IMG/VR virus record: IMGVR_UViG_3300043403_000123
Location: 1 to 39,635 of that record
From: a virus
Taxonomy: Duplodnaviria > Caudoviricetes
Strand: one strand, 5' to 3'
DNA length: 39,635 nt
The notes under the pieces: model-generated
Told to the model about the DNA's origin: nothing
Databases searched by the model: none
Seen by the model: only the letters and a program-made list of their open reading frames with translations
Made by a program: the position numbers and the translations under genes
In this document: in pieces, positions 11,078 through 38,712 of the stretch
How positions within the stretch are numbered: position 1 is the first letter of the stretch
How the letters are laid out: the number at the start of each line of letters is the position of its first letter

Positions 11078-13135
11078 TTAATCGTTTCCGTTGTGTATAT
11101 AGCCCCTTACAAAACTTTCTACCCTTGTGCTTGTTCTGCCTGCTGTTCTTAATGCTCTTATCTGGTTGCGCCGGTCTGCCATCAGCGTGTACATGGCTGC
11201 CATAGCAAGGTCATATTTGGTTCGGTTCTTAAATTCAAACCTCAGCCATTGGTTAATCAGCGTTTTAAAGAATACCTTATTTATATTGGTGTTTATAAAC
11301 TCCTCAGTCATATCCACCCCTGTTTCAGCGTTCTTGTCATTTCCGGGTATCCCATACCCTTCGTATTGGTCCAACTTCATCAGAAATCTTTCGTACCCGC
11401 GTATCTTAAAGTACTCTTCCCAATTGTTTTTGTTGTTTTCAAATAGTATTTGGCATCCAAAATAGTAGCAGGTTTTTATCATATCCTCATGAAAAATGGT
11501 TGGGCTTGCAGGACGGCTATGGTACATCATTATAAAACCATCATTAAGCGGATCGTTGCTGCCGGGGTTATTCTTCATCTTTACAAATGCTCCGGCAAGG
11601 CTCTTTCTCCCTTCATCCTGGACAACTGCATGGCTAAAAGGGTCGCATCCTATTACAAATTCAAGTTTGTTTTCGGGCTCAAAATAAGCACCCCTTTTTT
11701 GTACCATGTTTGGCTGTGGCCCATTTGCCTTAAAATCCCAGCATCTTGTCCACCTGCCGTCTCTGTTGGGTAGCCATACTACTTCTGTATCTGCAAACCC
11801 GTCCTTCCAAACCAGGTTGCCGCGTTCAATCATCTTGCCTGCCAATTCAAGGGCATCAATCCTGTTGTTAAGCAACTCGGCATCATACATGCAATCGCCT
11901 TCTCCGGTAAAGCGAAGTGCCCAATCTTCGTTTAATGGAAGTTTGCGCATCCACCCATATTTGTCTGCCAATGTTTCCTGGCTTTCAATTAAAATCCTAA
12001 TGCGCCTTTCGTTTTCTATAACATTGGTAAACCCGTATTTATTAAAGTCGCCTTCATATTCGGCTGCGGATGTAAAAATTTTGTATAATCCGCTTCTTGT
12101 TCTATTCAGTTCGTTTCGCTCTTTGTAGTTGCTATCCTTTACAAGTTTTCTGAATTTGCCGCCACCATCATCAATATCCTCCACGGTAGTAGTATAATAC
12201 TGCTTACCTATAATCCTGCCGCGTTCCATGCTACATGGCGCAACTATCTGGTGCCTTTTTGTAATATCATGAAGTTCTAATTTCCCGCACTCGTCACTTA
12301 CATACCTGTGTATTGCCCATCCATCTACCGCTACCGGCTTTGCAGAAAAATATCTTATCTGGCTTTTCAGGCTGTTTTCTTGCTTGTCCTTGGCGCTCCT
12401 ACGGCCACGCCTGCTGCGGCCCATAAAAAACATACCATTTTCAGGCTTATCGCCTTTATCGGTGTTAAAGGTTGGCTTAAAAAATTCTGGTAGTTCTGTC
12501 CATGGTTCAAGTACGGCACGGATATATAAATCCCCTGCGTCCTTGTCGTTTTTGCTTTGAATAATGCCGTTTACCTGCCTGTTCCGGGTAATGTATTCAA
12601 ATATCCATACACCGCTGCGGTAGCTTTTACCGCTTCGTCTGCTGGTAAATTCAAGCATACCAAGGCAATCAGGATCTTCCAAACAGAATTGGAGTGCGTA
12701 AAAAACCCGCCTATCAACGTCCCGGTAATCAGGGTAACCACCGTTTATGTACCACCAATTCAGGTAGAAATAATGCAGGCCGGTTATGTAGGTTGCTTTC
12801 CCATTATTCCAAAACCATACGCCTTTCATTCTCCGTCCCCACTCCTGCTGCCTGAACGCTTCAAGAACAGAATCTACAAAATCAGGGTTTTTTCGGGCAA
12901 CTCTTTCTTCTTCTTCATCTTCAAATAATTCATCCCAATTATCCGGCAATGGTGTCCGTTCCCAATATTGATCTTCCTGCTTCTTGCTGCGCTTTATTAC
13001 GTCCGTTGGCTCTACCAAATAACTATGACTTTTATCAGGGTTACGCAATTCCCTTACACCATACCCCACGGGGGGGATGTGGCAGGTGAAATCGTACACC
13101 TTTTCAGTAGTTCCGTTTGGTATTGGTGCGTACAC
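11078..13135 (-). CDS. terL: Terminase large subunit
   Basis: YITGLHYFYLNW adenine-binding region, Walker A-like SRRSGKS, Walker B YVSDECGK, and RNase H-like nuclease motifs IGCDPF, ILFENN and KYDLAMA. GTG start. Confidence 0.92.
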   Translation of the reverse strand: MYAPIPNGTTEKVYDFTCHIPPVGYGVRELRNPDKSHSYLVEPTDVIKRSKKQEDQYWERTPLPDNWDELFEDEEEERVARKNPDFVDSVLEAFRQQEWGRRMKGVWFWNNGKATYITGLHYFYLNWWYINGGYPDYRDVDRRVFYALQFCLEDPDCLGMLEFTSRRSGKSYRSGVWIFEYITRNRQVNGIIQSKNDKDAGDLYIRAVLEPWTELPEFFKPTFNTDKGDKPENGMFFMGRSRRGRRSAKDKQENSLKSQIRYFSAKPVAVDGWAIHRYVSDECGKLELHDITKRHQIVAPCSMERGRIIGKQYYTTTVEDIDDGGGKFRKLVKDSNYKERNELNRTRSGLYKIFTSAAEYEGDFNKYGFTNVIENERRIRILIESQETLADKYGWMRKLPLNEDWALRFTGEGDCMYDAELLNNRIDALELAGKMIERGNLVWKDGFADTEVVWLPNRDGRWTRCWDFKANGPQPNMVQKRGAYFEPENKLEFVIGCDPFSHAVVQDEGRKSLAGAFVKMKNNPGSNDPLNDGFIMMYHSRPASPTIFHEDMIKTCYYFGCQILFENNKNNWEEYFKIRGYERFLMKLDQYEGYGIPGNDKNAETGVDMTEEFINTNINKVFFKTLINQWLRFEFKNRTKYDLAMAAMYTLMADRRNQIRALRTAGRTSTRVESFVRGYIHNGND

Positions 13136-13475: not shown

Positions 13476-14111
13476 CTAACCCAATCCTGCCATCATCTCC
13501 GGGGTGTACCTCAGCTTGTTCTTCTTTACCAATTGATCGTCATTGGCAAATAGCTGCTTGTAGTATCCATCCAATGCTGCCCCAATTGCATCAAGTTCTT
13601 CCCTCAGCTTACCTTTAATGGTGTATGCTGTCAGTTCGTCCTTCTCCTGTACAATCATACCCTTTTTAATGGTAGCTCCATCATCCCCGGATATGGAAAC
13701 ATTGTTGCTGCTGCGTACCGGTTGCATCAGCCTTTTGCAATATTCCTCGTACAATTGCTCATTCACCACTACCCTTTGCCATAGTCTGCTGTTGGTAAAG
13801 TTAAACAGATAAACTATAATAGCTTGTACATGAATATCATTGGTTAATTCCTTTAGTTCCTCCGGCAAGGTATTGTGCATCATCAGGTCGGCCAATATCA
13901 GTGCGCGGTTCTTCCTTTTGTCCAATGCCGGTTCTGCCTGAATTAATGGGCTGCCGGGGTCATACATCATTATTATGTACCTGATCACTCTTTCGTCGGC
14001 CACCAATCCACCCATGATCGCTTCCAGCTTTGGGTAACTGTCGTACAACTCAGCCTTCATGGGGTTGAATGCACATGCTTTAAAATCCTGTTCGGTGAAG
14101 TCGTTCATCAT
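13476..14111 (-). CDS. Hypothetical protein, candidate terminase small subunit (211 aa)
   Basis: Helical protein with a YIIMMYDPGSP motif, two genes upstream of TerL. The function is inferred from position only. Confidence 0.45.
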   Translation of the reverse strand: MMNDFTEQDFKACAFNPMKAELYDSYPKLEAIMGGLVADERVIRYIIMMYDPGSPLIQAEPALDKRKNRALILADLMMHNTLPEELKELTNDIHVQAIIVYLFNFTNSRLWQRVVVNEQLYEEYCKRLMQPVRSSNNVSISGDDGATIKKGMIVQEKDELTAYTIKGKLREELDAIGAALDGYYKQLFANDDQLVKKNKLRYTPEMMAGLG

Positions 14112-17100
14112 TGCTTTGCTGCCTTTATGGTTGTTTTGTCGTATTTGCTAAATTCCATCATGTTTTTAACTATCTTATTCATTTCAGATTCGTTTACGCC
14201 CAATACCGCTGCATGCTGCTTCATGGTGGCAATATCATCCCCAAGTGCTACCTGTGCATCTTTAATGGCCTGCTTCTCGGCAAAATAGGCATCATCGGTT
14301 ATGTCACCTTTATCATGCTTGTACTTGTTTTCCCACTCGCGCTTTTTAATGGCATCAGCATCTTTTAGCCTGTCGCGTACATAGGTTTTAAAGTTGCGTA
14401 ACGGATCTACCCTGTATGGCCTTATGCCTATCAATTGCCTTGGGTCAAAATCTACATCAAGGCCTTGCATTTCGGTAAATATATCGTTCCAATCAGCCAT
14501 CCTGCCATCTTCCTTTTTAAACATGCGCTGTACAAAGGGCACGGCACTTGGCATCAGGTCGTGCGCAATAGTAGCCATCTTATCAATTGGACCATACACT
14601 TCCCTGCCCATGGCATCCTTTTCACCAATCAGGGTGCGAGAGAAGCTATTTACAATCATATCCGGCTCTGCGTATGGTACCACCAATTCGGTAAGGGCTG
14701 CAAGTGCGCCGGGGTTATCTACCAATTCATTGCCATTGGTAAATGCGTTGGGGATTTTAAATACCACACTCATTGGTTCAAGTGCATTCAGGTTGTACAC
14801 TTCCCAGGTGCCATCTTCGTTCTGCGTCATGTATTTATCCATCGTACGCATGTATGGCCTGCCAATGGCGTTAATGGCTGCAAGGCGCTTTTTCTTTTCT
14901 TCATCATCATCATTCCACAAGCTATATAGGCCACTCATTGCCATGCCGCCAATGGCTCCCAATCCTTTCAGGATGGCTCCCCTTAGTGTTAAATACCCTG
15001 CTATTCCTACAAGCCTGCGGGTACCCATCAGCACTTCCCTTGCATTGCCGTTCTTCTTCCCTTCCTTTATATCATGCAGTGCATAGTGTACCACGTTTCT
15101 TGCACATCGGATGGCTTCAATCTGGAAGGTTATAAAGTTGCCGAATATCGCAAAGTTCTTGCTTAACCACAATGCGCCACGGTATGCCCTTTGACCGGTT
15201 GGTTGGGTATTCTTCACCCGTTCTGCTGCCTCTTTCTCTATTGCTTCCTTTTCGGTTGCGCTCAGATCATCATAATCCTTGTTATGCCGTACCCATGCAA
15301 GGGCTTCACTTTCTTTTCTCCATCCTACAAATTTACTTGCAGCATCAGCCATGGCATAGCTGCGGGTAATTACGTTGTCGCGCAAACCGCTTTTAAGTTT
15401 ATCACCCCATGCCTGGGCAATGTTGCTCTGCGCCTGTATCATAATGGCATCAGCGTCCCCTTCGGCAAACATATTCTTTAGGTCCTGCATGGTTACGCTG
15501 CCATCAAATAACCCCAATTGAATCATGCGTTGGTTCCAGTAGTCGGTAGCCTTGCTATTGGCAAATACATTGGTAAACCAAAGTTTGGTAGTACGGGCCA
15601 AATCTTTTGCCTGTGTAACCGGGTTGCTCAGATAGTACCCGTTGGCAATATACCAGGCTGCGTTGCTAAACAAGTTAATGGCCTGTGTAACCGGGCTGTA
15701 AACCGTTTTGCCTGCCTTTACGGTACCTGCGAATTTCCGGTAAGCATTTAAAAACTTGTTGCTTGCTTCATGGCCTTCGTTAATGTACTGCGCCACTTCG
15801 GGGGTGGCATACAATCCGCTTAGTGGTGCCCATGATGGGCTGCCATCTGCTGCCACCAATTCAGTAGCCCTTGGGTCGGCGCTTGGATCGTTCTTTGCCC
15901 AAAATACTTTACCCATACCCATATTGAAAATATCGGTAAGGTATTTGGCCTGCATGCGTAATGATGCAAGTTTGGCCACGGTCATTATAAATTGCTCTGC
16001 CGGGTCTGTGTACTCACCATATAGTTTCCTGATTGGTGCCGGTACGTCCTGCCTGCGTTTCAGTATGCCTTTATCCATGCCAAATTCGGTAGTCTTAAAG
16101 CCAAACTTATCGCCTTCGGCTGCAGCAAGTAGCCTTTTCAATTCAAGCTGTGCCAATCTTTCTGCCTCTACATTGTTCTGGAAGCCTGGATTATTCGGGC
16201 TGTCATGGGCAAATATTCCTTCCTTCAAAAAGTTGAGTGCTTCTACCTTAACATTCTCAGGTATCTTTTTTTCCCAATCTTTTTCATTAAATATCCGGTA
16301 GCTTCTGTTCAGGTAGCTGCCCATATTTTCAAGTAGGGTTTGCGCCTGCAGCGGGGTTACCCATCCGTTTACTATAAACTCATTGGTAAGCCTGTCAATA
16401 TGCTGCCGGTACTCGCTTGCAAGGCGCTTGTGCTCAGGTGTTAATGCATCCACGTTGGCGCTTGCTGCGGTTTTATCCGCAATCAGTTCTGCAAAACCCT
16501 GCTGCTGTGCGGGTGTCATTTTCTTAAAAGCAGGTGTTAATTGCTGCTTTAAAAAGTTTTCAGCCTTGCGTACTATCCATTGGCTTTCACCCCTTGCATA
16601 GTCGGCAAGTTCTTTAAACCATGTTGGCATGCCTTCGCTGCTGGTAAAGTTGCGTTTCAGGAAGTCCCATGTTTTTCTTGCAATGCTTTTTTCATTATCC
16701 TGCACCTGTGTTGCAGGTATTAATGGACTGCCCGGCTGTGGGTTGCTGTACAATTGCTTTTGGTAGTTTACCTTGGCTCTTGCCAAAATATTGTCGGCAA
16801 GTAGCGGGTCAAGCCCCTTTATTGCCATTGCTGCCCGTATTATTGGAAGCATTTGTGCATCAGTCATACCCCGGCTTATCAATGGATAAACCTTTTGGTA
16901 AATGTTGGAGAAGTCGGAAGCAATGGGGGTTGGTTGGTTGGGGGCTGCCATGAAATTAGCAGAATCGCTGGTAACAGCTCTTATTTGCAAAGGGTCAATG
17001 GAAACATACGTTACATTGCTTCCTTTGCTTCCATAATTACTGTCATTCATAATTATGCCATCATAACCCGCTTCAATTAACTTTTGATGGAACTGTCCGT

Positions 17101-20100
17101 TATCCGACCTGAAAAATTCCCATGGCAATATTTCTGTCCTGGTAAATTTAGACTGAGCATAAGAAGATAAAAACGTATCTGCCTGATCTGTCAATAGGTT
17201 GTTATCATTCAGCCATTCCCTCCATTCAGTTGGCGTTTTTCGCATTCCAACTAAATCAAGCGGGTTCTTTATTGATAGGTAGAATACCCTTGGTGTAGCT
17301 TTTTCTATCCCTGCAAAGTATTTTGCAAAGGCTTTGGGCCAATTTTTATCTTGTGCAAAATAGAAAAATGAATGATTGCCAAACGTGCCCATGTTCTTGG
17401 GCTTAAACCCGGTAAAGTCATTATCACCATAAACGTTATAATGGTAAACAGGATTGGTAACCTTACTCCCTTCAAACCATTGCTTAAATTGCTCTGTATT
17501 GGGTGCGGCTGCCATGAAGGATGGTTGGGTGGCAATCTGTTTTCCCAACTCGTCTGCTGCAGCCATTTTTTTTCCCCACTTAACGGGTTGCCCTGGTCTT
17601 TCAATATGGCTGTAATTCCACTCGCTTCTTTTTTTGCTGTTGTTGGTAGTAATAATTATATCATTACTTGCCCGAAACTCTTTTATATCAATGTAATTGG
17701 CTGCACGTTCTTTTTCTTTCCGTTCCTCGTCTGCTTGCCTATATTCCTTATTGCCTCTTACTACACTCCAATAATTATCCCTTATAAGCTGATTAAAAAA
17801 TCCGTAATCATCGCTTGGTAATCCTACTTCTTCCCTTATTTTGGAATAATTATTATCAGTCCCATTTTCAATATTTGCAATCAAGGTGGATTTTACTAAC
17901 TCATAAACAGAATCGTTTACGCTTTCGTCCCCAATATACTTTTCGGCTAACTCGTAAATGTTTTGAATGTCTTTTAGGGTGTAATCATCTGCCCCGGTAT
18001 CAATAGTAATAGTTGCTGCTGAAACCTGTAAGCCTTCTGCACTATTTGCATCGCTAACGGCTCTTGTGTGGTCACTTATGCGTATGTCGTAACTTACTCC
18101 GCTTGGGCTGTCAAATTCTACATATTTACTATTTGTTGTCCGGCTTTGGTTGTAATTATCGGGGTTTACGCTAATCTTTTCAAGCCAATTTAATACGCCT
18201 TTATACGTCTGTGCAGGGTTGGCTTTTTTAAATTTAATTTCCAATCCGCTTCTGCCCAATCGTTTCACATCACCTGCTGCCATAAAACGAATATCGGGAT
18301 TACCCGCCATAAACATCGCTACATTTCCGCTTTCATCCTCCCTTTCCTCAATAGTATCAGCTAAATGCTTGTAAGCCTTATTTATTTCTACTGCTTCCTC
18401 CTTTGTTGGGTACGGAAAGTTTTCAAGGGTAAAACCGCTATCCTCTACCCATTGGCTCATTTCCTTAAAGTTAGCCAAATAGTCGTTCTTCTCCCCGGTT
18501 TCGGCAAGTTTGTTTATTATGAAGTTTTCAAATGTCCTTGCTGTCATTTCAACTGGATCACTCCAATACCGGTTCGACCTTGTTTTATCAAGTTCCAAAC
18601 TCCGCTGAGGTAGTTCCGTTGCATTTATGGCATCTACCAATGCTTTGTATGCCTGCATTACTTCCGGCCTTATCCTTTCATCCTTCACCCATTTCCCGGT
18701 GCTGTCTTTCACCAGTCCTGCCCTTGGGCTTGCTGTTACAAATCCTTCGGTGGTGCCGCGCATACGGCTGAAATAGTTATCCATGGCGTGCCACCACTCA
18801 TGGGCCAGGCTTCCGGCTCCTTTGGTTTTGGTAAGGTTAATTACCACCTTCTGCGCTTCAAAGTGTGCGTTGGCTTTGCCGCTACCCCTTGCGCCAAATG
18901 CAAGTCCTAATTTCCCATTCAGGCTAATAGCCTTGGGGTTAAGTCCCATCACTCCGGAAAGGTCCATCAGGGCATCATAAGCCTCGTTTATACTTACCTG
19001 CCTTTCGCCCTGGTTTACCCAATTTCCAAATTCAATACCACGGAAACCAAATTGCTTTGCAAATTCCTCTGCGGTAATATCCTTCCCCTTGCGCCAATTG
19101 CGCCCGTTTCTTGGGGTGTTGGCATCCGGCCTTTCTTCCGGGTTCAGCTTCATGCCATACCATTGTTCTTCAAGCTGTGCCTGATTTTCTTTAAGGTAGG
19201 CAAAGGTGTCTTTGGCGCTGGTAAAGCCTCCTATCATTCTTACATTATCGGTTCCTGTGGCCTTGGCAATAAAGTATTCAAGTGTTTTTCTATCCTGATA
19301 TACGCCAAACTTTACAGCCTTTTTGCTTGCCGTTTCTTTGGTGGCATTTATCATATTCACAAGCCCCCTGGCTGCTGCTTCTATGGTATCAAAGTCCTTT
19401 ATAATAATGCTGCCTTTTACTATGCTTACCCTGGCACCGTCCTTGCTGCTTGTCCATTTTTTTATTTCATACCCTCCTAACTTTGGGTTTACATTGGGAA
19501 AATCAAAGGCATCCATTACCTTGCTGTAAATCTCGTATGCATTGGCAAGGTAGGAATCTGTTTTTTGCCTTATAGAATCGCTCCAAACGGTATCAAGGTA
19601 TTTTGGATCTTCCACAATGCTTTTCACCATATCAATACCTTCCTGAACCCTGTTTACCCAATTTCGAAGCAAGTAAGGCTTCCGGGGTTTGGCAGGAATA
19701 TTCTGATACAGATATTTTATAAACTTGGCACCTTCCTTGCTTATAATCTTATCATCCACCAATTGCTTGTAATCCGGCTCCGGAAAACTTTTGCTTAATG
19801 GCTGGTTTATAATATCTTCTTGGGTAATGTCATTCAGCTTCCTTGCAAGGTCTTTCTTGGCTCCACCAATCTTTTCACCGTAATCTTCAATTTTTTCTTT
19901 TGGTGGGGCTTGTACCTGCTGCACCTGTTCTTTTGTCTGTGGCTTCAAGGCTTCGGGCACAATGGGTTCCATATTTGCCCCAAACATGCTTAGCTGCGCA
20001 GGGTTTACTTTCCCCCCGGCCATTAGCTTTGCTTCTTCGGGTACCATTTCGGCTGCGTATGTATTCATCGCATCCATTAATACAATCTGATCTTCACGCC

Positions 20101-23100
20101 TTACGTCCTCGGTTTCCTGCAATAAGGTTTGCCTGCGCTTATCAGCATTCATGTACATGCGCTTTTGCACGTTACGGCTTTCTACTTCTCCGGCAAGACG
20201 GCGGTAGGCTTCAAATGGAGTTATTCCCTTACCCGTTGCGCTAATTGCAGTAAGTACCCATTCGTCAACCTTATTTTCTTCTACTGCTTTTTTGTAGGAA
20301 GGGAGGTCTGAATATTCCCTTTCAATTATTTTTTTGCTTTCTTCAAAGGCAATTTTTTTAGTCATGTTGTCATTTCCACCTTTGGCAAATCCTTCTTCAT
20401 GCTGTATGGCATGCTGTAATTCATGGAGTAGAGTAGATAATACAACTTGATCCACCCCCTTTATATCCTCCGAAATCTGTATGTTTTTGGTTTTGTAGTT
20501 GTACTGTCCATTTACACTTTCTGGCAGGTAAGCAAACCCAATCTTTATTTCATTCATCAGGTTAGGATATGCCTGCGCAAATTCACCTTCAATAATTCTT
20601 TTTATTGGTGCTTCATAAGAATTTGAATCGTTGGTTTCTTCGGTTATACGTTTGGTTAGGCTTGTAATAGGCAAGGCTTCTATATCGTTTGCCTTTAATG
20701 CTGCCATTACCTGTTGCATTAAATCCTTTTGGTACCTTGGCAATCCAAGTTCCTTATCCAATGCTTCGAGGTCTTTAATTGCTTTTTCCCTCCCGCCTTT
20801 TGTAAAATCTTCGTTAGGGTCGTTTTCAGCATTAAGTTTATCAATCAATAGCCTTGCCCTTACTGCCTCGTTAAACACTGCTTTATTTACGCCACGCCTT
20901 ACGGTTATATCCGGTATTTCGTACTTCCATCGTGAATCTGCTCCCTTTTCCCATCCGGTTGCCAAACGAATATTAAGCGGGTCTTTACCTGCCTGCCCCA
21001 TATCCTTTGCCACCTTTAAATCACTCAGTATCTTTTCAGCGTTCTGCATCCTTGCGGCTCCGGTGGGGCCTGCAATCATAAAGCGGATATCGTTGCTTTC
21101 TTTGCTGAATGTGCCACGGTTGCCGGTGGCAGATTTTACTTGGTTGGGGTTTGCTACATAGTAAACGGTTCCTGAATCCTGATAATCTTCATCATCAATC
21201 CATGAATCTTTTATGTTATTAAATATCACTCCATCGTACCTGTCTGTGTCAAGGTTTGCAGTTATTTCCCTTGTACTGTTCCCAAATTTACTGCCAATGT
21301 TGTCCCATTTTCTGCCCCTTGCATTAATGATTAATGGATTTTCTAATTTTAAATAAACCTCCATTACATTATCGCCACCTGCATATCCATCAGCATTCAT
21401 ATAGTCGTCTGTGAAAAATGCGCCTCCTGCAAATTCAGTAAATTCAGTCATTGTCCCATGATACACCACCATCGGGCTACCATCAGGATTAACCACCTTG
21501 CTATCCCCAAACCACTTTTTAAAGGCTTCGCTGTTGGTGAGGGGTGCTGCCATAAATTTAACATTCCCAGAATCAGGTATGCTTGGATTTTCAAAATCCT
21601 GCACTATCTTTGTGGCCTGCTCAATGAGCTTAACCACCTCGGCGGAATGGGACTGCCGTTGGTTAAGCCATTCGGGCAGATTTGTTTTATCAGCATATTC
21701 AAGCAGGTTATCTTCCACTATCCAAAGTAGCATTTCCCTTTCATTATCCTTCGGGTAAAGGCTGCGAATGTCGTTTATCTTCGCTTTTTTGCCGTCAATA
21801 TCAAGGTGTAAGGCCACCACATAATTAGTATTACCCTTCTGCATTTCGGTAAGGATCAGCTTGGCATTACCCCTTGTTTTGCTTTGGAATACTGCCAATG
21901 GCCTTGCTATTGCACCTGGCAAGTCGGTAATTTCAAATAGCTTAATATCGTGCTTGTCCTGCTTTTTGCTTAGTTGGGTGCTTGCCATTTCAATAGGCAA
22001 ATCCGGTACTCCGGTACTCAAAAGTATTTCGGATGGCGGGCCAAGTTCAAATACTTTAAACTGTCTGTCTTTTGCGTACTTCAATAAATCAGCCTCAAAT
22101 TTCTGTTCGGCTGCTTTTTGCGCCTGCCTGCGGGTGGGGTAATTGGTACCGCCAACCATGAAAAGGGTCATTTGCTTACTCGCTTCCTTCTCCATACCTT
22201 GGTACTTACCATATAGCCTGTTGGTTTCGGCTGCCGCTTTATCCATCCTTGTTTTAAACGGCTGCAGGGCTTTTTCGGCTGCTTTCAATTGTGGCTTTTC
22301 ATCAAACAGCTTTTGCATACCGCCACGTTCTTCCGGCGTTTGCCCAAACAGATCCACCACTCCCTGCTTGTAGCTTTTCATCAGTTCGGCTTTCTTCTTT
22401 TCGTATGCGCCCTTGGCCGCATCATACTCAGCCTTTGCAGCATCAAGTAGCTTGCGGGTTTCCTTTTGCTCAGGTGTGGTAGGGGTGTAAAGGGTTGCGC
22501 CTGCCATGAAACGGGTATCACCGCTTTCGCTTATGGGTGTCCTTGCCCTTTCCGAATCACTCATACCACTACGTATGGCACTATTCCGCGCTTCTATTTC
22601 GCCCGGTACATCAAGGTATGTTTCGTATGCTTCGCGGTAAATTTCTTGCGCAATGGGATTGGTAGCACGGTCTGCTATTACCTTATCTGCATCAAGGGGA
22701 ATTATGTAAGCTAATACCTGTGCATTTGCAGGGTTTGCTTCTTGCATAATTGATCTGTACCTTTCTGCAATAGTTGCGTCAATTACGTTTTTTAGGTTAG
22801 CCCCTGGCTGCCATTTTTCTTTTTTCTGAACGTAATGTTGAATTTCGTGGGTGATAAGTTGGGTCAGTAGCTTGGACAGCAACTCCGGTCGTTCAAGTTG
22901 TGCCATGATGTCCCCACGGCTACCCATCCCGGATCTTCCGGTGTCCACACCTGGGCGATTTCCTTTAAAGTAACCGCTTGTGAAATAACGTCCGGCCACA
23001 CTTTTGCTGCCATTGACAAATATCGTTGGCGCAATTTCCTTTTGAGGTAATCCTCTTTGCTCTCTTTGTGCATATCGTGCATAATCTGTTTCAAATTGGC

Positions 23101-26100
23101 TGGTGTAAAAATCCAAATATACATCCTTCAATTCAGGATACAAATCGGCAAGTTCCCCCAAATCCACCATATCCCCCAGCTTGCCGGTTCGTACTTCCCC
23201 ATCTAACGCATCCTTAAATGCTTTTATTGTTTCATCAGGAATTTGTATGGGTTGCGTATCTCTTACTAATCTTCCGTCTGGCAATTCTTCTACTCCGGTT
23301 GCTGCCCATAATTTGCGCTTGTCGGTTATGGTTTTAGCCATATCCTCGTAATTTTCCTGCATTTTACTGCCTGCAGGTACAATCATCATCCTGGCTTCTC
23401 CTTCCTGTTCTGCTAAATTACCCTTCAAGCCCTTCCCACTCAATATCCTTCCAGCTACCGCCCCGGCTAATTCATCCATGCTCATTGCCGCCACCTGCTC
23501 CGGTGTAGCATTTTCAAAATCCTTTGCTGCCTTAGCTGCACTCCACCTTGCCCCAATACCCGTTTTACGCTCAATAGCATACCCGCTTGCCCATGCTGCC
23601 AATTCCTCTGTATTGCGGATGGTAACGCCCAATATGGCATCCTTAATGTTCTGCCACATGGTAACCAAATCATCCTTAAATGAACGGCTCATGCGGTTGC
23701 CCTGTGCGCCCACTGCCCATGCAAGGGCTTCATCGGCTATTACTGCATTGCTCTTACCTGCATAGTTCGGGTTGGCCCTTACCTGTGCTTCCCAATAGCT
23801 GCCCTTGGTTTTAGCCATCATGGCATCATGCAAAGTCTTGTTATTGGCCTTAAGCCATTTTATAAATACATGGCTTGCTTCGTGTACCGGCGTATTGGCA
23901 TTAAAGTATTTATCGTTTAAAAGTATTTTACCTGTGTCGGGGTGTACAAATCCATACACATTCCCTTCCCGATTGGTATAGGTTTCTGTTTCGTCCTTGG
24001 CTACGGAATCAACGGCTTTGGCGAAATTGGCCTCAGTCATTACTTCAATGCCTTTAAAATTTGGTACCCCTGCAAACAGATTTTTAATAACCTTAATTAT
24101 ATTTTTAGACCTTTTGCTATCGCTATCAATGGCATCAATATCACTCCCAAAAAATGTTTTCTGTTTAGCAGGGTTCAACCGGGCTTCTTTGCCTATGGGT
24201 GCAGCATCCTTGCTCTCTCCCATAAATGGTGCATCTTCCAAATCATCAAGGTTGGTATCTTCCCCAAAAGGGTTGTCTGGCAAGTTGGCAATAAAATCAT
24301 CATTGGCGGCTGTGTTGCCTGCGGCTTCTGCATCAATAATACGTTTTTGTTCTTCGGGATTAAGTAACCCACCTGCTGTAATATCTGTATCTATATCATC
24401 CTGCGTTTCACCTTCCTGCTCATACGCGGGTAATCTGCCATTGTACCATTCCACTACTTCTTCATCACTCTTTTCAAGTTTTCCAGCAAGGTCTTTTGCC
24501 ATTTGGGCCGTACTTGAATAGTCGTTTAGTACTTTTTCAACGGCTTCCCTAAAATCCTGATCGGTGTATTTATCCCTTGTACCATCCGGTATTTCTGCCC
24601 ATATTCGTTCCGCAAGCTCCTTTATGCCCGGACCATTTTTATCCATTATACCAATACGTGCCTGCCTTTCGGCTGTTACTGCCTTATCGGCTACGCCAGT
24701 ATTTAATGCTAAATTGCCCCCCCCAAATAAGTCTTGTATTGCCTGCGCTGAAATTTTACCGCCACCTATAAAGTAGCGCATTACCCTTGTTAAAGGTGTA
24801 AAATCATCCTCAGTACCTTCCATAGCCTTCCGGCTTATGGGGTTGCTTAGTTGCTTTGCTTTCCTTGGCTGGCTTGCTGTTGCCTGCGGTACCGGGCTAA
24901 CGCCTGCGTTAGTAGTGTTATTTCCTGCGGTTTCAGGCTGTTCCAAACCGGACTGTACTTGCGCTTGTTGGGCTGTTGCGCCGGTGGCTGTTGTGGTTGC
25001 TGCTGCTTGTCCATTACTTTGTAACGTTTTTATTATTGGTTTATTGCCCTGCTGCTGCATTTTTATTGCCGCTTCTTGTGCAACTTGTTTTGCAGCATCC
25101 AATTGGGTGTAGGTTAATACTGCCCCACGCTCGTTGGTTATGGGCTTTGGCTTACCATTGGTGCCGGGGGTATAAACGGTAAATACCCCATTGCGCCCCG
25201 GCTCAACGGTTGCCATGGTATTGCCATCCTTATCCTGCAGGCTTACTATTGCCTTACTGTTATCCTCGGTATCGGCCCATGTGCCGTTATCAATTTCAAT
25301 GGCAGGGGCTTTTGTTGCTACCCCTGTCGCTCCCATATCTTCGGTAAGTGCCCCCGCTAATTGATTTGCTATGGCCTGTTCTTCGGGGGTTAAATCTTCC
25401 GGTGTTGAAGTAGTAACGCCCGTAACTGCTTGTTGTGCGGCCTGTTGCTGCTGTTTAGCTTGTTCCAATATTTCTTCGGGAGCTTGTAAATCCATGTAGT
25501 CATTTACAATCAATTTATTATCTACAAGCCTATTTCTCCCATCCTGACTTTCCTTAATTTCTTTTAAAATTTGGGCTTTTATTACTGGGTCTTTTGTGGC
25601 TTCGGCCTTTTGGTACAATACCTTTTCATTGGCTGCCATCAATACCCACTTATCCAGCTTTTTTGCCGAAAGGTTAAGGGTGGATGGATCGATATTGGTA
25701 AGTTCCTTGTTTACCTGCTGAATATAGGCAATGCTGCTCAGCTTGTCCTTTGCTTCGTCCGGGGTGTATAAGGTTCCGGTATTATCCTGCACATGCCGTA
25801 TAAGGCTGTTGGTAAGGGTAGCATCCCTGCCTATTTGTGCCAATTGTGGAATAAGAAAATCAGCACTTTTGCGCCTGCCTGTACGGTATGCCCCGTAAAT
25901 ACTCATGGGCAAAAACCCTAATCCGGTGGCTATGGCTACATCCTTGCTGTTTTTAATGGTCTGTACAATATCAGCTTCCTCTGGTGCCATCAGGCTTTTT
26001 TCTATAAAATCAGCCCATTCAATAATCACTTCTTCACTTATTTCGCCTACCGTTCCCATGCCTGCATTCAGGGCAGTATTCCATGCTCCTTTCAATACGC

Positions 26101-28258
26101 CTTTTAGCTGGCTGTTAAATGTGCTGCGGGTTACCCCCTTTTTCCCCATGGCCTGTACTAATTCGGCCAATCCCCCGCTTACCTGCTTATTAAACATATC
26201 CAGGTATCTGGTATCTGGTATTATTAATTCACTTACACCTTCAAATAATGCCATCGTGTTTGCATACAATGGGGTTTTCCATGCTGCTCCTTCCTTACCT
26301 TCAAACATGGCTTCGCTTTTTGCCTGGTATCCTGGTAGGCTCATAGTGTACCCGGCTGTAATAAGGCCAATGGCATCGGCTGTACTTTTACCCATTTTTA
26401 ATCCTACGCCGGCCATCATGTTTTCGGCTATGCCTGCTGCGCCTGCTACTTTACCGGCCTTTATCGCCGTTGGTGCAAGGCCTGCTATGCGTAATCCTGC
26501 ATTGGTTGTACCGCTTATTGCTCCACCTATAACCCTTCCTAATGCCCCAAACATATATGCCTGCGAAATGGCATCCCCGGCAAAACCTATAAACTTTTCA
26601 TACCCCTTTCTGGTATCTACATACTGTTTTAATTCGGCAAACTTTACTTTATCTTCTGGCGTAAATGTGCCATCTTTTTCTTTTTGTGCCAATTGCTCAA
26701 ATTGCTGCATCAGTACTGGGCTTTCCCCTACATTTTGCAACATAGCGGTATATGAGCTATCAAGGCGGTCAATTGCTCTGGCTTGTTTATCAAACCCGAA
26801 TGGCATTGCTAAAAACTTTACTACCTCGGTGGCTGTACCCATAAAGCCATCTGCAACCCGCCCGGTCAAGTCCTGGCTTGGCAGGCTCATAATGCCGCCA
26901 ATATTGTTTTTTTCTTCGTTCTCCAATATTGGCCTTACATGCTTGTAGTAAAATGCCTTGTCGGTACTATTGAATTGGTTTGCGTATTTATCGGTTTCTA
27001 CCAGCTTGGCGTTGCTCTTGCCAATGTTTTCCCATACTGTATTGCCCCTGTTATGCTCGGCAGATAGCTTGTGCATAATGGTGCCAATCTTTTCGTCCGG
27101 GTGCCTGTCGTCAATGGTCTGCATTTGTTCTTCTGCTGCCATCATACGGTCTTGTTCCCCGGTAAGCATATCAGCCTGCAGCCCTAACATTTCGGCCTCG
27201 CGGTTTACCTTCCGGCTTCCACCTTTGGCAAGTTTGGCATCTGGATTATTCTTTTCCATTACCTTCCGGCCAATTTCCTGTGGGCTTGCGTTTGGCATTC
27301 TTAGCCTTAATTGGTATGCTTCAAGCAAATCAAGTTGCTGTGTGGCTTGGGTAAATTCGCTTTCAATAGCTTTTCTGTGGGAGCTTTCATACTCCATCAT
27401 TTTTACGGCACCCATCACCATTGGGTTTGCACCAAAAGCCATTCCCGCATTGTTGCCTGTTTTGCGTTCTATTTCAATCTTGGCCTGATTTATATTTTGC
27501 TTATGCTTTTCCGCTACTGCCTGCCTTACCTGCTGCAAATAATCAGGATCAGCAATGGCCTTGTTCATATCTACTTCACCTACCCATTGGGTCAGGTTAT
27601 CGGCAATATTCTTTTTTTGTGTTTCGCCAAATTGCTTAATGGCATCGTCCTTTTCTTTTTTGGCCCCGCTGCGTATAAGGTTTACCAAACCGGCTGCATC
27701 GGTTCTGCCCTTGGTTTGTGGTGCATAGTGGTTGGCTAATTGCGCTGCTACCTTTGGTGCTGTGGTTTTTACATACTGCCAATCGCTATCGCTCAGTGCG
27801 TCCCTTTTGCTTACAATATCGGCAATTTTTGCAGGGGCATCCTGCAGGTAGTTGTACAAATCCTTTCTGCCTTTCCATTGGTCGGTATGGTTGCTTGAAT
27901 TTTTAAGGCTATCAAAGTTTGCGCGTTGTTGCTTGTCAAATTCAAACAATCCATCTATATCCATTTCAGAAACAGTTGCCTTATGTTTGGCTCCTACTTC
28001 TTTTGGCGTAATGGCCAATACCCCTACCCCTGGCTTTTTTGCAGGAATAGGCTTTGGTGCACTATATTCAGGGTAAATTTGGTTCAGCATTTCTTCCGGT
28101 TCTTTCGCAACCGATTTCGCATACCAATATGCTTTTGCACGTTTTGCTTTGTTCAGGTCGAACCCCACTGCTTTTCCCATTTCCGGATCGGAAATAATAT
28201 CCTGCGGGGTTTTACCTGCTGCGTAGGCTGCTAAAATTTTTTCTAATATTGGATCCAT
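14108..28258 (-). CDS. Giant polyvalent virion/ejection protein (4716 aa): zincin peptidases x4, ART x2, MuF-C RNase-like, LPD23/LPD5/LPD1-like domains, helical LPD38-like C-terminus
   Basis: Uninterrupted 14.15-kb ORF following two ejection-type genes. It contains the HExxH motifs HEASH, HEIQH, HELQH and HEWWH, two FKxWF..SKV..YH..GYDG ART-type domains, KIEDYGEKIGGAKKD (LPD5-like), ATGWEKGADSRWKYEI (LPD23-like), YWSDPVEMTARTFE..YP (LPD1-like) and Gly/Ala-rich membrane-like stretches. Confidence 0.88.
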   Translation of the reverse strand: MDPILEKILAAYAAGKTPQDIISDPEMGKAVGFDLNKAKRAKAYWYAKSVAKEPEEMLNQIYPEYSAPKPIPAKKPGVGVLAITPKEVGAKHKATVSEMDIDGLFEFDKQQRANFDSLKNSSNHTDQWKGRKDLYNYLQDAPAKIADIVSKRDALSDSDWQYVKTTAPKVAAQLANHYAPQTKGRTDAAGLVNLIRSGAKKEKDDAIKQFGETQKKNIADNLTQWVGEVDMNKAIADPDYLQQVRQAVAEKHKQNINQAKIEIERKTGNNAGMAFGANPMVMGAVKMMEYESSHRKAIESEFTQATQQLDLLEAYQLRLRMPNASPQEIGRKVMEKNNPDAKLAKGGSRKVNREAEMLGLQADMLTGEQDRMMAAEEQMQTIDDRHPDEKIGTIMHKLSAEHNRGNTVWENIGKSNAKLVETDKYANQFNSTDKAFYYKHVRPILENEEKNNIGGIMSLPSQDLTGRVADGFMGTATEVVKFLAMPFGFDKQARAIDRLDSSYTAMLQNVGESPVLMQQFEQLAQKEKDGTFTPEDKVKFAELKQYVDTRKGYEKFIGFAGDAISQAYMFGALGRVIGGAISGTTNAGLRIAGLAPTAIKAGKVAGAAGIAENMMAGVGLKMGKSTADAIGLITAGYTMSLPGYQAKSEAMFEGKEGAAWKTPLYANTMALFEGVSELIIPDTRYLDMFNKQVSGGLAELVQAMGKKGVTRSTFNSQLKGVLKGAWNTALNAGMGTVGEISEEVIIEWADFIEKSLMAPEEADIVQTIKNSKDVAIATGLGFLPMSIYGAYRTGRRKSADFLIPQLAQIGRDATLTNSLIRHVQDNTGTLYTPDEAKDKLSSIAYIQQVNKELTNIDPSTLNLSAKKLDKWVLMAANEKVLYQKAEATKDPVIKAQILKEIKESQDGRNRLVDNKLIVNDYMDLQAPEEILEQAKQQQQAAQQAVTGVTTSTPEDLTPEEQAIANQLAGALTEDMGATGVATKAPAIEIDNGTWADTEDNSKAIVSLQDKDGNTMATVEPGRNGVFTVYTPGTNGKPKPITNERGAVLTYTQLDAAKQVAQEAAIKMQQQGNKPIIKTLQSNGQAAATTTATGATAQQAQVQSGLEQPETAGNNTTNAGVSPVPQATASQPRKAKQLSNPISRKAMEGTEDDFTPLTRVMRYFIGGGKISAQAIQDLFGGGNLALNTGVADKAVTAERQARIGIMDKNGPGIKELAERIWAEIPDGTRDKYTDQDFREAVEKVLNDYSSTAQMAKDLAGKLEKSDEEVVEWYNGRLPAYEQEGETQDDIDTDITAGGLLNPEEQKRIIDAEAAGNTAANDDFIANLPDNPFGEDTNLDDLEDAPFMGESKDAAPIGKEARLNPAKQKTFFGSDIDAIDSDSKRSKNIIKVIKNLFAGVPNFKGIEVMTEANFAKAVDSVAKDETETYTNREGNVYGFVHPDTGKILLNDKYFNANTPVHEASHVFIKWLKANNKTLHDAMMAKTKGSYWEAQVRANPNYAGKSNAVIADEALAWAVGAQGNRMSRSFKDDLVTMWQNIKDAILGVTIRNTEELAAWASGYAIERKTGIGARWSAAKAAKDFENATPEQVAAMSMDELAGAVAGRILSGKGLKGNLAEQEGEARMMIVPAGSKMQENYEDMAKTITDKRKLWAATGVEELPDGRLVRDTQPIQIPDETIKAFKDALDGEVRTGKLGDMVDLGELADLYPELKDVYLDFYTSQFETDYARYAQREQRGLPQKEIAPTIFVNGSKSVAGRYFTSGYFKGNRPGVDTGRSGMGSRGDIMAQLERPELLSKLLTQLITHEIQHYVQKKEKWQPGANLKNVIDATIAERYRSIMQEANPANAQVLAYIIPLDADKVIADRATNPIAQEIYREAYETYLDVPGEIEARNSAIRSGMSDSERARTPISESGDTRFMAGATLYTPTTPEQKETRKLLDAAKAEYDAAKGAYEKKKAELMKSYKQGVVDLFGQTPEERGGMQKLFDEKPQLKAAEKALQPFKTRMDKAAAETNRLYGKYQGMEKEASKQMTLFMVGGTNYPTRRQAQKAAEQKFEADLLKYAKDRQFKVFELGPPSEILLSTGVPDLPIEMASTQLSKKQDKHDIKLFEITDLPGAIARPLAVFQSKTRGNAKLILTEMQKGNTNYVVALHLDIDGKKAKINDIRSLYPKDNEREMLLWIVEDNLLEYADKTNLPEWLNQRQSHSAEVVKLIEQATKIVQDFENPSIPDSGNVKFMAAPLTNSEAFKKWFGDSKVVNPDGSPMVVYHGTMTEFTEFAGGAFFTDDYMNADGYAGGDNVMEVYLKLENPLIINARGRKWDNIGSKFGNSTREITANLDTDRYDGVIFNNIKDSWIDDEDYQDSGTVYYVANPNQVKSATGNRGTFSKESNDIRFMIAGPTGAARMQNAEKILSDLKVAKDMGQAGKDPLNIRLATGWEKGADSRWKYEIPDITVRRGVNKAVFNEAVRARLLIDKLNAENDPNEDFTKGGREKAIKDLEALDKELGLPRYQKDLMQQVMAALKANDIEALPITSLTKRITEETNDSNSYEAPIKRIIEGEFAQAYPNLMNEIKIGFAYLPESVNGQYNYKTKNIQISEDIKGVDQVVLSTLLHELQHAIQHEEGFAKGGNDNMTKKIAFEESKKIIEREYSDLPSYKKAVEENKVDEWVLTAISATGKGITPFEAYRRLAGEVESRNVQKRMYMNADKRRQTLLQETEDVRREDQIVLMDAMNTYAAEMVPEEAKLMAGGKVNPAQLSMFGANMEPIVPEALKPQTKEQVQQVQAPPKEKIEDYGEKIGGAKKDLARKLNDITQEDIINQPLSKSFPEPDYKQLVDDKIISKEGAKFIKYLYQNIPAKPRKPYLLRNWVNRVQEGIDMVKSIVEDPKYLDTVWSDSIRQKTDSYLANAYEIYSKVMDAFDFPNVNPKLGGYEIKKWTSSKDGARVSIVKGSIIIKDFDTIEAAARGLVNMINATKETASKKAVKFGVYQDRKTLEYFIAKATGTDNVRMIGGFTSAKDTFAYLKENQAQLEEQWYGMKLNPEERPDANTPRNGRNWRKGKDITAEEFAKQFGFRGIEFGNWVNQGERQVSINEAYDALMDLSGVMGLNPKAISLNGKLGLAFGARGSGKANAHFEAQKVVINLTKTKGAGSLAHEWWHAMDNYFSRMRGTTEGFVTASPRAGLVKDSTGKWVKDERIRPEVMQAYKALVDAINATELPQRSLELDKTRSNRYWSDPVEMTARTFENFIINKLAETGEKNDYLANFKEMSQWVEDSGFTLENFPYPTKEEAVEINKAYKHLADTIEEREDESGNVAMFMAGNPDIRFMAAGDVKRLGRSGLEIKFKKANPAQTYKGVLNWLEKISVNPDNYNQSRTTNSKYVEFDSPSGVSYDIRISDHTRAVSDANSAEGLQVSAATITIDTGADDYTLKDIQNIYELAEKYIGDESVNDSVYELVKSTLIANIENGTDNNYSKIREEVGLPSDDYGFFNQLIRDNYWSVVRGNKEYRQADEERKEKERAANYIDIKEFRASNDIIITTNNSKKRSEWNYSHIERPGQPVKWGKKMAAADELGKQIATQPSFMAAAPNTEQFKQWFEGSKVTNPVYHYNVYGDNDFTGFKPKNMGTFGNHSFFYFAQDKNWPKAFAKYFAGIEKATPRVFYLSIKNPLDLVGMRKTPTEWREWLNDNNLLTDQADTFLSSYAQSKFTRTEILPWEFFRSDNGQFHQKLIEAGYDGIIMNDSNYGSKGSNVTYVSIDPLQIRAVTSDSANFMAAPNQPTPIASDFSNIYQKVYPLISRGMTDAQMLPIIRAAMAIKGLDPLLADNILARAKVNYQKQLYSNPQPGSPLIPATQVQDNEKSIARKTWDFLKRNFTSSEGMPTWFKELADYARGESQWIVRKAENFLKQQLTPAFKKMTPAQQQGFAELIADKTAASANVDALTPEHKRLASEYRQHIDRLTNEFIVNGWVTPLQAQTLLENMGSYLNRSYRIFNEKDWEKKIPENVKVEALNFLKEGIFAHDSPNNPGFQNNVEAERLAQLELKRLLAAAEGDKFGFKTTEFGMDKGILKRRQDVPAPIRKLYGEYTDPAEQFIMTVAKLASLRMQAKYLTDIFNMGMGKVFWAKNDPSADPRATELVAADGSPSWAPLSGLYATPEVAQYINEGHEASNKFLNAYRKFAGTVKAGKTVYSPVTQAINLFSNAAWYIANGYYLSNPVTQAKDLARTTKLWFTNVFANSKATDYWNQRMIQLGLFDGSVTMQDLKNMFAEGDADAIMIQAQSNIAQAWGDKLKSGLRDNVITRSYAMADAASKFVGWRKESEALAWVRHNKDYDDLSATEKEAIEKEAAERVKNTQPTGQRAYRGALWLSKNFAIFGNFITFQIEAIRCARNVVHYALHDIKEGKKNGNAREVLMGTRRLVGIAGYLTLRGAILKGLGAIGGMAMSGLYSLWNDDDEEKKKRLAAINAIGRPYMRTMDKYMTQNEDGTWEVYNLNALEPMSVVFKIPNAFTNGNELVDNPGALAALTELVVPYAEPDMIVNSFSRTLIGEKDAMGREVYGPIDKMATIAHDLMPSAVPFVQRMFKKEDGRMADWNDIFTEMQGLDVDFDPRQLIGIRPYRVDPLRNFKTYVRDRLKDADAIKKREWENKYKHDKGDITDDAYFAEKQAIKDAQVALGDDIATMKQHAAVLGVNESEMNKIVKNMMEFSKYDKTTIKAAKQ
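16955..17512 (-). other. Domain within giant protein: ADP-ribosyltransferase-like (ART-PolyVal) copy 2
   Basis: TEQFKQWFEGSKV..VYHY..FFYFA..FYLSIKNPL..AGYDGII..YVSIDPLQIR. Confidence 0.75.
18314..20020 (-). other. Domains within giant protein: LPD5-like + zincin metallopeptidase (HEWWH, 18788-18802) + LPD1-like
   Basis: KIEDYGEKIGGAKKD; FGFRGIEFGNWV..LGLAFGARG..AH..INLTK..GAGSLAHEWWHAMD; YWSDPVEMTARTFE..YPTKEE. Confidence 0.75.
20027..21076 (-). other. Domains within giant protein: LPD23-like + zincin metallopeptidase (HELQH, 20411-20425)
   Basis: IRLATGWEKGADSRWKYEIPD..AYPNL..STLLHELQHAIQHEEGFAKGG..YRRLAGEVESRNVQKR. Confidence 0.75.
21083..21550 (-). other. Domain within giant protein: ADP-ribosyltransferase-like (ART-PolyVal) copy 1
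   Basis: AFKKWFGDSKVVNPDGSPMVVYHGT..FFT..VMEVYLKLENP..YDGVIF..PNQVKSATGNRGTF..NDIR. Confidence 0.8.
21557..22156 (-). other. Domain within giant protein: MuF C-terminal (BECR-fold RNase-like) domain
   Basis: LGPPSEILLSTGVPDLPIEM..KH..LPGAIARPLAVFQS..LILTE..VVAL..INDIRSLYPKD. Confidence 0.65.
22511..23383 (-). other. Domains within giant protein: diverged LPD23-like + zincin metallopeptidase (HEIQH, 22835-22849)
   Basis: LWAATGVEELPDGRL..LYPELKD..THEIQHYVQKKE..YLDVPGEIEAR; paralogous to the 20027-21076 module. Confidence 0.7.
23390..24220 (-). other. Domain within giant protein: zincin metallopeptidase (HEASH, 23870-23884)
   Basis: VYGFV..GKILLN..NTPVHEASH..DEALA (third-ligand Glu region). 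Confidence 0.7.
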
Positions 28259-35985: not shown

Positions 35986-36657
35986 TTATATTTTTACTGG
36001 TGAAGTTTGATTTTGAACGGTTTTTTCATTGGCATACTGCACTATCTCCGGTTGTTTCAGGTTTACCCCAAGTAATTCAAGTGCTTTCATCAATACCGGG
36101 TTCATGTAGCTATCTGCCCACTGTGGATTCGTGCTTGTATTCGGGTCGTGGGTTTCTACCGTTCCGCTTGCTGTGTAGGAATAAAATGGCTTTACCGGTG
36201 TGCTAAGGTAATTAAGGGTAACCGTGTACACTGCTGTTTTTGGGTACACCTGTATGCCTGCTTTCTTTAAAACGGCAATTGGCTTTTGGTTGGTTACCGG
36301 CCTTACCTGGCTGCTCAGTGCATCGCCCAATTCATCCGATTTGTAAAGTTTGAGTGCCGTAACAAAGTTTTGCAGCAACTCATTATCATAATAGTTAGCC
36401 ATAGCCCCGGTTGCATGCTCGTATCCGGAAGGATAAGCCACATAACCTGTTGCATTGGTGGTTAGGTCAGTTTCCTCCCTGAAAGGCTTTAGCGCCTCAT
36501 GCACATATTGGGTTTGTAAAAATTCGGCAAAATAGGTAGCAAATACCCCTAACTGTGCGTTATGGATAGCAGTGTCCTTCTTCCCCCTGCTGAAAAACCC
36601 TGTCCGGGTTTTCTTTAGCATGAAGTCCAACCAGTCATGTGCTTCCTTTATGGTCAT
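35986..36657 (-). CDS. Head-tail adaptor/ring protein (223 aa)
   Basis: MTIKE.H..L.K...GF....D.AI.NAQ..LKPF..YLSTP.KP..ALELLGVNL is the pattern of Bacteroidota podophage portal-proximal ring proteins. Confidence 0.65.
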   Translation of the reverse strand: MTIKEAHDWLDFMLKKTRTGFFSRGKKDTAIHNAQLGVFATYFAEFLQTQYVHEALKPFREETDLTTNATGYVAYPSGYEHATGAMANYYDNELLQNFVTALKLYKSDELGDALSSQVRPVTNQKPIAVLKKAGIQVYPKTAVYTVTLNYLSTPVKPFYSYTASGTVETHDPNTSTNPQWADSYMNPVLMKALELLGVNLKQPEIVQYANEKTVQNQTSPVKI

Positions 36658-37253: not shown

Positions 37254-37259
37254 GGTGTA

Positions 37260-37274
37260 GTTATATGGTTTAAC
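37260..37274. promoter_or_regulatory. Operator-like site GTTATA-TGG-TTTAAC (1 mismatch)
   Basis: 6 nt upstream of the GroES-like ATG at the head of the structural operon. Confidence 0.6.
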
Positions 37275-37316
37275 CAACACCAAAAATAAAACCATTGTAA
37301 GTAATACGGCAAAAAA

Positions 37317-38586: not shown

Positions 38587-38712
38587 CGGTTCTCGGCTTT
38601 GTGCAAGTGGGGATTTGGAACACGAAAGTTTCAATTCAGCACAAAAGCCGATTAGAATTACTGCTGTTGAATTTAGCACGTCAGCCCCACTTGCGTAAAG
38701 CATTTGTTAGTG
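38581..38712 (+). mobile_element. attC-like recombination site 1 (132 bp)
   Basis: Degenerate R'' ACGTAGC overlapping the DUF1064 stop, inverted arms GCTTTGTGCAAGTGGGG (38596-38612) / CCCCACTTGCGTAAAGC (38685-38701), and R' GTTAGTG (38706-38712). Confidence 0.6.

Follow-up and report, generated by a model that had tools for sequence, protein, structure and literature searches.

The window analysed here is the whole 39,635-base stretch of the virus record IMGVR_UViG_3300043403_000123, a single contig with a G+C content of 44%. Its minus strand carries, at 14108..28258, the gene of the polyvalent protein P0001 of 4716 amino acids (aa), a predicted virion ejection protein that we call the giant. 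It is a member of the phage polyvalent protein family. Short peptide tags stand at the joints between its modules, relatives exchange modules at these joints, and the tag occurs inside the first peptidase domain, the core zincin, only where cargo splits that domain. From these patterns we infer what the tag may do: rather likely, it is a cleavage site cut by the core zincin, probably after injection, which would free the cargo modules. One chain of modules with a tag at each joint would be packaged and then ejected into the host; the core zincin would read the tag, cut the bond x/F-M (the slash marks the cut) and release the cargo. Cultured relatives and knowledge of the family suggest that the giant is packaged in the virion and injected, and relatives of it are annotated or detected as virion proteins.

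The modules and tags of the giant are as follows (positions in the window, residues in the protein):

24227..28258 (-), N-terminal body, aa 1-1344; conserved in orthologues, without junction tags
24215..24226 (-), tag 1, DAP-FMGE, preceded by an acidic run; VPFMA and APFMA in orthologues
23390..24226 (-), core zincin, aa 1345-1623, candidate processing enzyme; HExxH at 1459-1463, third-ligand Glu1510
23945..23983 (-), hairpin of the core zincin, TYT-NREGN-VYGFV, unsplit here and reading Thr; in relatives an internal cargo-insertion site, then tagged
23378..23389 (-), tag 2, EAR-MMIV
22511..23389 (-), cargo: divergent LPD23-type zincin, HEIQH at 1804
22499..22510 (-), tag 3, DTR-FMAG
22163..22510 (-), cargo: 116-aa helical module with three xxLF repeats; a 64% identical module with the same flanking tags in P0002
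22151..22162 (-), tag 4, MTL-FMVG
21557..22162 (-), cargo: MuF_C (PF18819; Pfam)
21545..21556 (-), tag 5, NVK-FMAA
21083..21556 (-), cargo: ART-PolyVal (PF18760; Pfam)
21071..21082 (-), tag 6, DIR-FMIA
20027..21082 (-), cargo: LPD23 and zincin, HELQH at 2612 (Pfam)
20015..20026 (-), tag 7, EAK-LMAG
18314..20026 (-), cargo: LPD5, zincin and LPD1, HEWWH at 3153 (Pfam)
18275..18313 (-), tags 8 and 9, spaced nine residues
17519..18286 (-), cargo: 256-aa module of no known family
17507..17518 (-), tag 10, QPS-FMAA
16955..17518 (-), cargo: divergent ART-like module (BLAST)
16943..16954 (-), tag 11, SAN-FMAA
14108..16954 (-), C-terminal body of 948 aa, with a relationship to gp127 (phrog_22602), a virion protein of Cellulophaga phage phi13:2

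All 11 hinge motifs listed in the original prediction, whose coordinates give the final base of each ATG, are present. Their Met residues lie at aa 1346, 1625, 1918, 2034, 2236, 2394, 2746, 3317, 3326, 3582 and 3770, and the motif is spelt FM in nine, MM in one and LM in one. When the sequence was shuffled 2000 times, FM[AG] (8 observed, 0.91 in shuffles), FM[AGIV] (10 against 1.48) and FM[AGIV][AGV] (8 against 0.34) reached the observed level in no shuffle; these patterns were picked post hoc, once the motif had been seen. FM alone was mildly raised (10 against 5.2, a level reached by 3.9% of the 2000 shuffles). An unguided enrichment scan placed FMAA directly after HExxH as the top motif (4 against 0.06). 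Nine of the ten FM pairs of the giant lie within aa 1345-3770, and the tenth (aa 473) is not conserved in either of two aligned orthologues.

The hinges had been said to fall between domains, and they do: MuF_C, ART-PolyVal, LPD23 and LPD5+LPD1 each lie inside one inter-hinge segment and no Pfam domain crosses a hinge. Of 941 alignment ends, from about 280 fetched proteins collected blind to the motif, 157 lay no more than 5 aa from a hinge, where 4.8% would be expected; the hinges at 1625, 2236 and 2394 are still spanned by alignments from 27-55 clusters (delimited at 5% shared 5-mers). Most of the predicted domain labels were supported by Pfam matches above cut-off (ART-PolyVal, LPD5, MuF_C, LPD1 and LPD23). 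Two were not. The first "LPD23-peptidase" segment had no Pfam match and takes its label from BLAST to the second (E 1e-6), and the second "ART" segment, without a Pfam match alone, gave BLAST values of E 5e-6 over 31 aa and E 5.5e-5 to a phage ART. For the four encoded zincins, four HExxH motifs are intact. The residues NPDIRF between tags 8 and 9 correspond to the way in which ART modules usually end at the C-terminus, and this short piece is therefore likely a deletion remnant.

For the 256-aa and 116-aa modules the Atlas yielded nothing usable. The xxLF repeats of the latter read VVDLF, MQKLF and QMTLF; they are kept in P0002 and partly in P0066. Module 7 begins with QLSMF (19985-20000, (-)). 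The beta-clamp-binding motif is QL[SD]LF, which the xxLF repeats and QLSMF resemble; across 135 clusters such motifs numbered only 22 against 13.5 expected.

Relatives with other cargo and dialects of the tag

The proposed cassette construction was supported by the orthologue P0002 (6263 aa), which has the N-terminal body, the core zincin and the C-terminal body (45%) in common with P0001 and carries other cargo, including a C5 cytosine methylase and an N6 adenine methylase-SNF2 helicase. [FL]M[AI] stands at eight of its joints, among them a 6-aa remnant flanked by two tags, and [FL]MA[GVL] was found 7 times against 0.46 in shuffles (n=400). The common helical module ends KQMTLF/M in P0001 and KQMALF/M in P0002, and its downstream neighbours differ. 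The modules of the two orthologues change at the hinges, where the breakpoints had been expected, and breakpoints in a distant gut-phage family likewise fall at its tag. Directly before the C-terminal body, the shorter relatives P0015, P0022, P0030 and P0043 read QPMAT, AFMAT, NLMAR and SFMAT. The gp127 protein of phi13:2 (locus L057, 11308-17280) has the C-terminal body and lacks HExxH; on inspection no recurrent tag was evident in it, and it is a possible natural negative control.

Other relatives vary in their joints. P0003 and P0004 have the same C-terminal body and apparently another joint motif (IQASAG, VQASLG), without an aromatic tag at the ART end. In the Pseudoalteromonas phage vB_Pun_Y3 (locus L056, 957-14331) the giant consists of two open reading frames (ORFs). 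The second carries the C-terminal body whole, and about 68 aa of that body are found again at the end of the first, which looks like a recent replacement of the C-terminal module. The proteins P0162-P0173, of 3-7 kaa, have up to ten tandem ART-like modules, each ending in DIRF-X or SILSQ.

As judged from sequence comparison, junction tags of the form [RKLP]-[FYL]-X are widespread, with S, Q, R, K, A or M as X, and the hinge represents one of their dialects. With a search pattern that left the last residues free, the commonest endings of ART modules were FS (61), FQ (17), YQ (15), FK (14), FR (14), SQ (12) and FA (10), with FM in 5. At 184 anchored sites, for which an aromatic residue was required, X was S in 59, Q in 47, R in 28, K in 23, M in 9 and A in 9. 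The idea that the released effectors would each begin near Met-Ala therefore does not generalise, and the Met is incidental, as most relatives have S, Q, R or K there. An aromatic tag was present in 106 of 113 long proteins with an ART tail, and 103 of these have HExxH and 3 HExxxH; this sample was drawn partly with zincin queries and is biased to zincins.

Within one protein, X was the same at the ART end and at the start of a separate LPD23 in 9 of 15 clusters, against 4.0 when permuted (p 0.006). Compared with the nearest homologous module in another cluster, X agreed about as often as by chance (15/53, chance 0.23; 11/30, chance 0.30). The three closest relatives of the P0001 ART, 60-63% identical to it, end in Q, Q and S. 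X thus tends, in these comparisons, to be common within a protein and not to be inherited with the module. X lies at the crossover point and is therefore part of neither module, and its being Met in all 11 hinges of P0001 needs selection or biased recombination. Outside the gut family, calling dialects by whole-protein [RKL][FY]X enrichment proved too noisy. In a tree of core zincins, M filled 9 of 10 rows of one clade, with 4 changes against 10.4 when shuffled. This pattern is not counted as co-evolution of zincin and dialect; kin share labels in the tree, 26 labels were set by hand, nine basal rows resemble other zincins, and part of the M calls were made at the internal site, which favours Met regardless.

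The core zincin as candidate processing enzyme

The core-zincin family comprised 479 representatives at E <= 0.001, and the best 150 of the 479 were fetched. In these relatives, cargo is often inserted 8 residues before the VYGF strand. In 39 of the 45 clusters that lack an adjacent N-subdomain, a class that takes in undetected subdomains, the residue at -8 from VYGF was F, Y or L; the same held for 2 of 23 clusters with one (Fisher p 3e-10, a value inflated by kinship). The classification into split and unsplit was blind, since the profile excluded the 15 residues before VYGF; it repeated an earlier test on hand-picked seeds (19/22 against 2/17). The position is tag-like in split zincins and not in unsplit ones, so the homologous position takes the form of a tag when it is a joint and is unconstrained otherwise.

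The core zincin motif was found in all 48 gut-family giants of at least 4200 aa, always at one fixed place where the cargo region begins. A cargo zincin was present in 24 of them, and 5-10 tags were kept by all 48. Since the tags are kept in the 24 giants without a cargo zincin, the evidence favours the core zincin over the other zincins. A proteolytic site for an encoded zincin, as originally suggested, appears to be the best interpretation of the tag; the suggestion named no one zincin among the four, and the evidence points to the first.

H134, E135, H138 and E185 are invariant among 50 core-zincin sequences. The AlphaFold2 model of the core zincin, of which the secondary structure only was used, has helices at 130-147 and 179-218 and strands before the active-site helix. 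Tags 1 and 2, which flank the domain, lie in stretches with pLDDT below 50. Upstream of VYGF, AlphaFold2 placed a strand at -8 to -6 in P0001; in P0128, which bears the tag, it spans -9 to -6 (R-Y-L-K). In both, a turn leads from this strand into VYGF. A T-P-x-G bulge is the usual type of turn in such hairpins. In the thermolysin family, the substrate lies along the upper-rim strand as an antiparallel ribbon; a small residue of the strand holds P1' through its carbonyl, and a flap ahead of this strand stands above the cleft (PMC9002140). If VYGF is the upper-rim strand and the turn is of the T-P-x-G type, the aromatic residue of the tag would pair with the Gly and would thus be P1', which gives x/F-M as the cut bond. 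We propose this bond with low confidence, and the hairpin could alternatively be such a flap.

Processing of this kind has been considered before. Autoprocessing of polyvalent proteins by their metallopeptidase (MPTase) domains was predicted, and DdrB of phage P1 is cited as processed (PMC5512222).

Several points weigh against cleavage of the tag by the core zincin. In the literature covered, as far as its text was available, no observed cleavage of any tag-bearing protein was found. Despite its HExxH domain, the N4 vRNAP is unprocessed when packaged, and the MPTase-bearing ArdC and TraC1 are transferred at full length (PMC5512222); a 2026 model of N4 has the vRNAP tethered through a linker (PMC13434306). 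The zincin fold was matched weakly, with best Foldseek values of E 0.068-0.084 to zinc peptidases; a wide structure search gave no clear match (best Z 4.7), and a sequence search found no zincins in the PDB. The tag is low in information and FM also occurs at aa 473. The dialects are leaky, with 6 of 15 clusters discordant between ART end and LPD23 start, the p-values from clusters are inflated by kinship, and the same NANTPIHEFGHLWN active-site stretch accompanies X = Q, M, N, L and A. With one active-site stretch for several dialects, the description of a "programmable" delivery system was overstated. Finally, TTC is over-used in the gut-family tags (82% against 59%), a possible contribution at the DNA level there.

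The tag might be an uncut signal for binding or handling. It would dock on the zincin, the portal or the ejection channel and set the order in which a protein built like beads on a string is packed, unfolded or threaded. The conservation results demonstrate no more than a reader at the protein level, which such a signal would satisfy, and in a split zincin, as in the P0128 model, the domain itself includes the tag as one of its strands. The N4 vRNAP is packaged whole even though its MPTase region is required for encapsidation (PMC5512222), and a beads-on-a-string ejection model has already been proposed (PMC13434306). However, a spacer or threading role does not obviously need a tag at every joint and on both sides of a 9-aa remnant, nor one inside a peptidase only when cargo sits there. 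We regard the uncut signal as rather unlikely.

Alternatively, the tag could be cut by another enzyme, namely a cargo zincin, a prohead protease or a host protease. The giant has three further intact HExxH domains, the contig is probably partial so that a protease may be encoded elsewhere, and many proteases would accept an aromatic residue in a loose linker. Against this stand the tags of the 24 gut-family proteins that have no cargo zincin, and no protease was named among the window proteins by Pfam or PHROGs. Maturation systems of the T4 or phiKZ type encode a prohead protease and have one site in common between capsid and scaffold proteins. In the window, [FL]M[AGIV] is absent from the presumed capsid and portal proteins, and the suggested cleavage during head maturation is not supported. 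A cutter other than the core zincin is decidedly unlikely in our judgement.

Cleavage by the core zincin can be extended to a wider proposal, which is possible, though doubtful as a whole. Polyvalent proteins across phages of Bacteroidota, Proteobacteria and Bacillus would have one processing grammar, in which the core zincin reads a lineage-specific aromatic dialect and incoming modules are rewritten into the dialect of the host protein. The copy of the tag in the hairpin, lying across the active-site cleft, would hold the zincin inactive until ejection and could be split by cargo, and the cut x/F-X would free the effectors.

Constraint on peptide and DNA at the joints

No close relatives with DNA were found among viral contigs or metagenomes (with P0043 as the metagenome query), and the distant gut-phage family (tag [KR]FS[LI], 29 proteins) was therefore used for comparison at the DNA level. 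When block edges were mapped tag-blind in this family, 481 of 1222 edges in the cargo region lay within 5 aa of [RK][FY]S, against 4.4% expected; the edges, 1714 in total, are in many cases redundant and not independent. Its 55 loci with 396 tags comprise 27 left halves and 28 right halves in 62 junction types. Across the tag, base identity follows the left half up to the wobble position of the Ser inside it. As a crossover point the tag would serve such swaps well, since recombination there leaves a working tag in place.

What is constrained is the peptide rather than the DNA. When the 11 window hinges were resampled synonymously with the codon usage of the gene, their mean DNA identity was 10.8 of 21 nt against 11.5 +/- 0.26, and the longest shared run was 5.6 against 6.2 expected. 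The gut-family tags comprise 58 different 12-mers and encode Ser as both TCN and AGY.

These results bear on the proposal that the motif is a recombination scar, with a DNA microhomology, TTYATGGC, driving in-frame swaps and the peptide arising as a by-product. The linkage indeed switches from left to right at the Ser wobble base within the tag, and in the gut family some 11-12-mers recur and codon use is biased. However, identity and run length of the window hinges are below the synonymous expectation, the changes at the peptide level are conservative (F/L/M; A/V/I/G), and Ser is encoded in two ways. The microhomology as sole cause is largely refuted by the resampling, and the crossovers inside the tag would be only a by-product; we hold a scar as the reason for the motif to be very improbable.

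A further reading, in which translation starts internally at the hinge ATGs or these once began captured genes, has the Met of all 11 hinges in its favour and was rejected as next to negligible: M fills X in only 9 of 184 anchored tags of relatives, A stands at -3 in 1 of 11 hinge ATGs against 11 of 20 window ORF starts (mechanical start calls), and the A-rich leaders of those starts are absent at the hinges.

Genomic setting and comparison with known systems

The giant gene lies in a window whose minus strand has a block of virion genes, with a terminase, a portal and several virion proteins recognised by PHROGs:

11078-13135, terminase (PHROGs match)
8775-11066, portal (PHROGs match)

The terminase shares about 29% identity with its counterparts in Flavobacterium and Cellulophaga phages. 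For the C-terminal body of the giant, the identity to virion proteins of the Cellulophaga phages phi13:2, phi18:3 and phi19:3 is 26%. A placement in the Pachyviridae, for which clustering with Baltivirus and its kin by genome or marker gene is the standard, would have only these identities of 26-29% behind it. A host among the Bacteroidota is likely. No replication genes were recognised in the window, and the contig is therefore probably partial. A GroES-like PHROG match (E 5e-9) lies among the virion genes at 36654-37295 (-), and a crAss001_48-related protein is encoded on the opposite strand (38704-39264, (+)). Two antisense ORFs, one of 424 aa opposite the presumed capsid gene (6310-7584, (+)) and one of 347 aa opposite the giant gene (25905-26948, (+)), are probably shadows.

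The zincin is the commonest domain of polyvalent proteins and has been proposed since 2017 as a cutter without a site; the tag supplies candidate bonds and a candidate enzyme for it. The tag also marks module boundaries directly, including those of cargo of unknown family, and explains the in-frame shuffling of these genes. If cleavage occurs, a single ejection protein would deliver several separate early effectors, and the tag would offer a natural entry point at which laboratory phages could take up other cargo. The Pseudomonas phage F116 (gp60) and the Bacillus phage Dartukuta (gp57) are cultured and processing at the tag could be sought in them. No description of a junction tag was found in the literature searched, in which coverage of subscription papers was largely lacking.

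The giant has the domains described for polyvalent proteins (Iyer et al. 2017, PMC5512222), namely MPTase, ART-PolyVal, MuF-C, LPD1, LPD5 and LPD23, and lies like them in a head/tail gene block. That work already proposes that an embedded MPTase releases domains, and it likens such proteins to the polyproteins of RNA viruses. The available part names no cleavage motif and does not describe the tag, its dialects or the cargo-split zincin, and the word "linker" is absent from the main text. DdrB of phage P1, compared by its description, is similarly an MPTase-bearing head protein reported to be proteolytically processed, and differs in having one reported product, made before packaging, and no defined site (PMC5512222). 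In crAss-like phages, fused virion proteins are thought to be cleaved by a zincin-like domain in gp65 (bioRxiv 10.1101/2020.03.07.982082); there the cargo is an RNA polymerase, cleavage is only proposed and the available text gives no motif.

The vRNAP gp50 of coliphage N4 (PMC13434306) is an ejected giant of similar layout, with an N-terminal domain, an enzyme, an HExxH domain and a large helical C-terminal domain arranged as beads on a string. In contrast to our proposal for P0001, it is unprocessed when packaged, modelled as tethered and has one fixed cargo, again as compared by description.

The gp47-type ejection protein of phi24B, found in virions (bioRxiv 10.64898/2026.04.10.717836), and gp60 of F116 have LPD5-zincin-LPD1, MuF-C, LPD23 or ART modules and a tag of the S dialect. 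The tags are YSR at 1462, 1693 and 1894 in the phi24B protein and QYSF, AFSR and LFSR in F116 gp60. Both phages differ from ours in their proteobacterial hosts and in the dialect, and the available phi24B text states no band size for its protein.

Polyproteins of eukaryotic RNA viruses are single chains with repeated short sites and an embedded cysteine or serine protease. By analogy, the giant probably works like such a viral polyprotein. The working would be similar if the tag is indeed cut, but there is no homology, the enzyme here is a metallopeptidase, and the modules are swapped between genomes at the sites.

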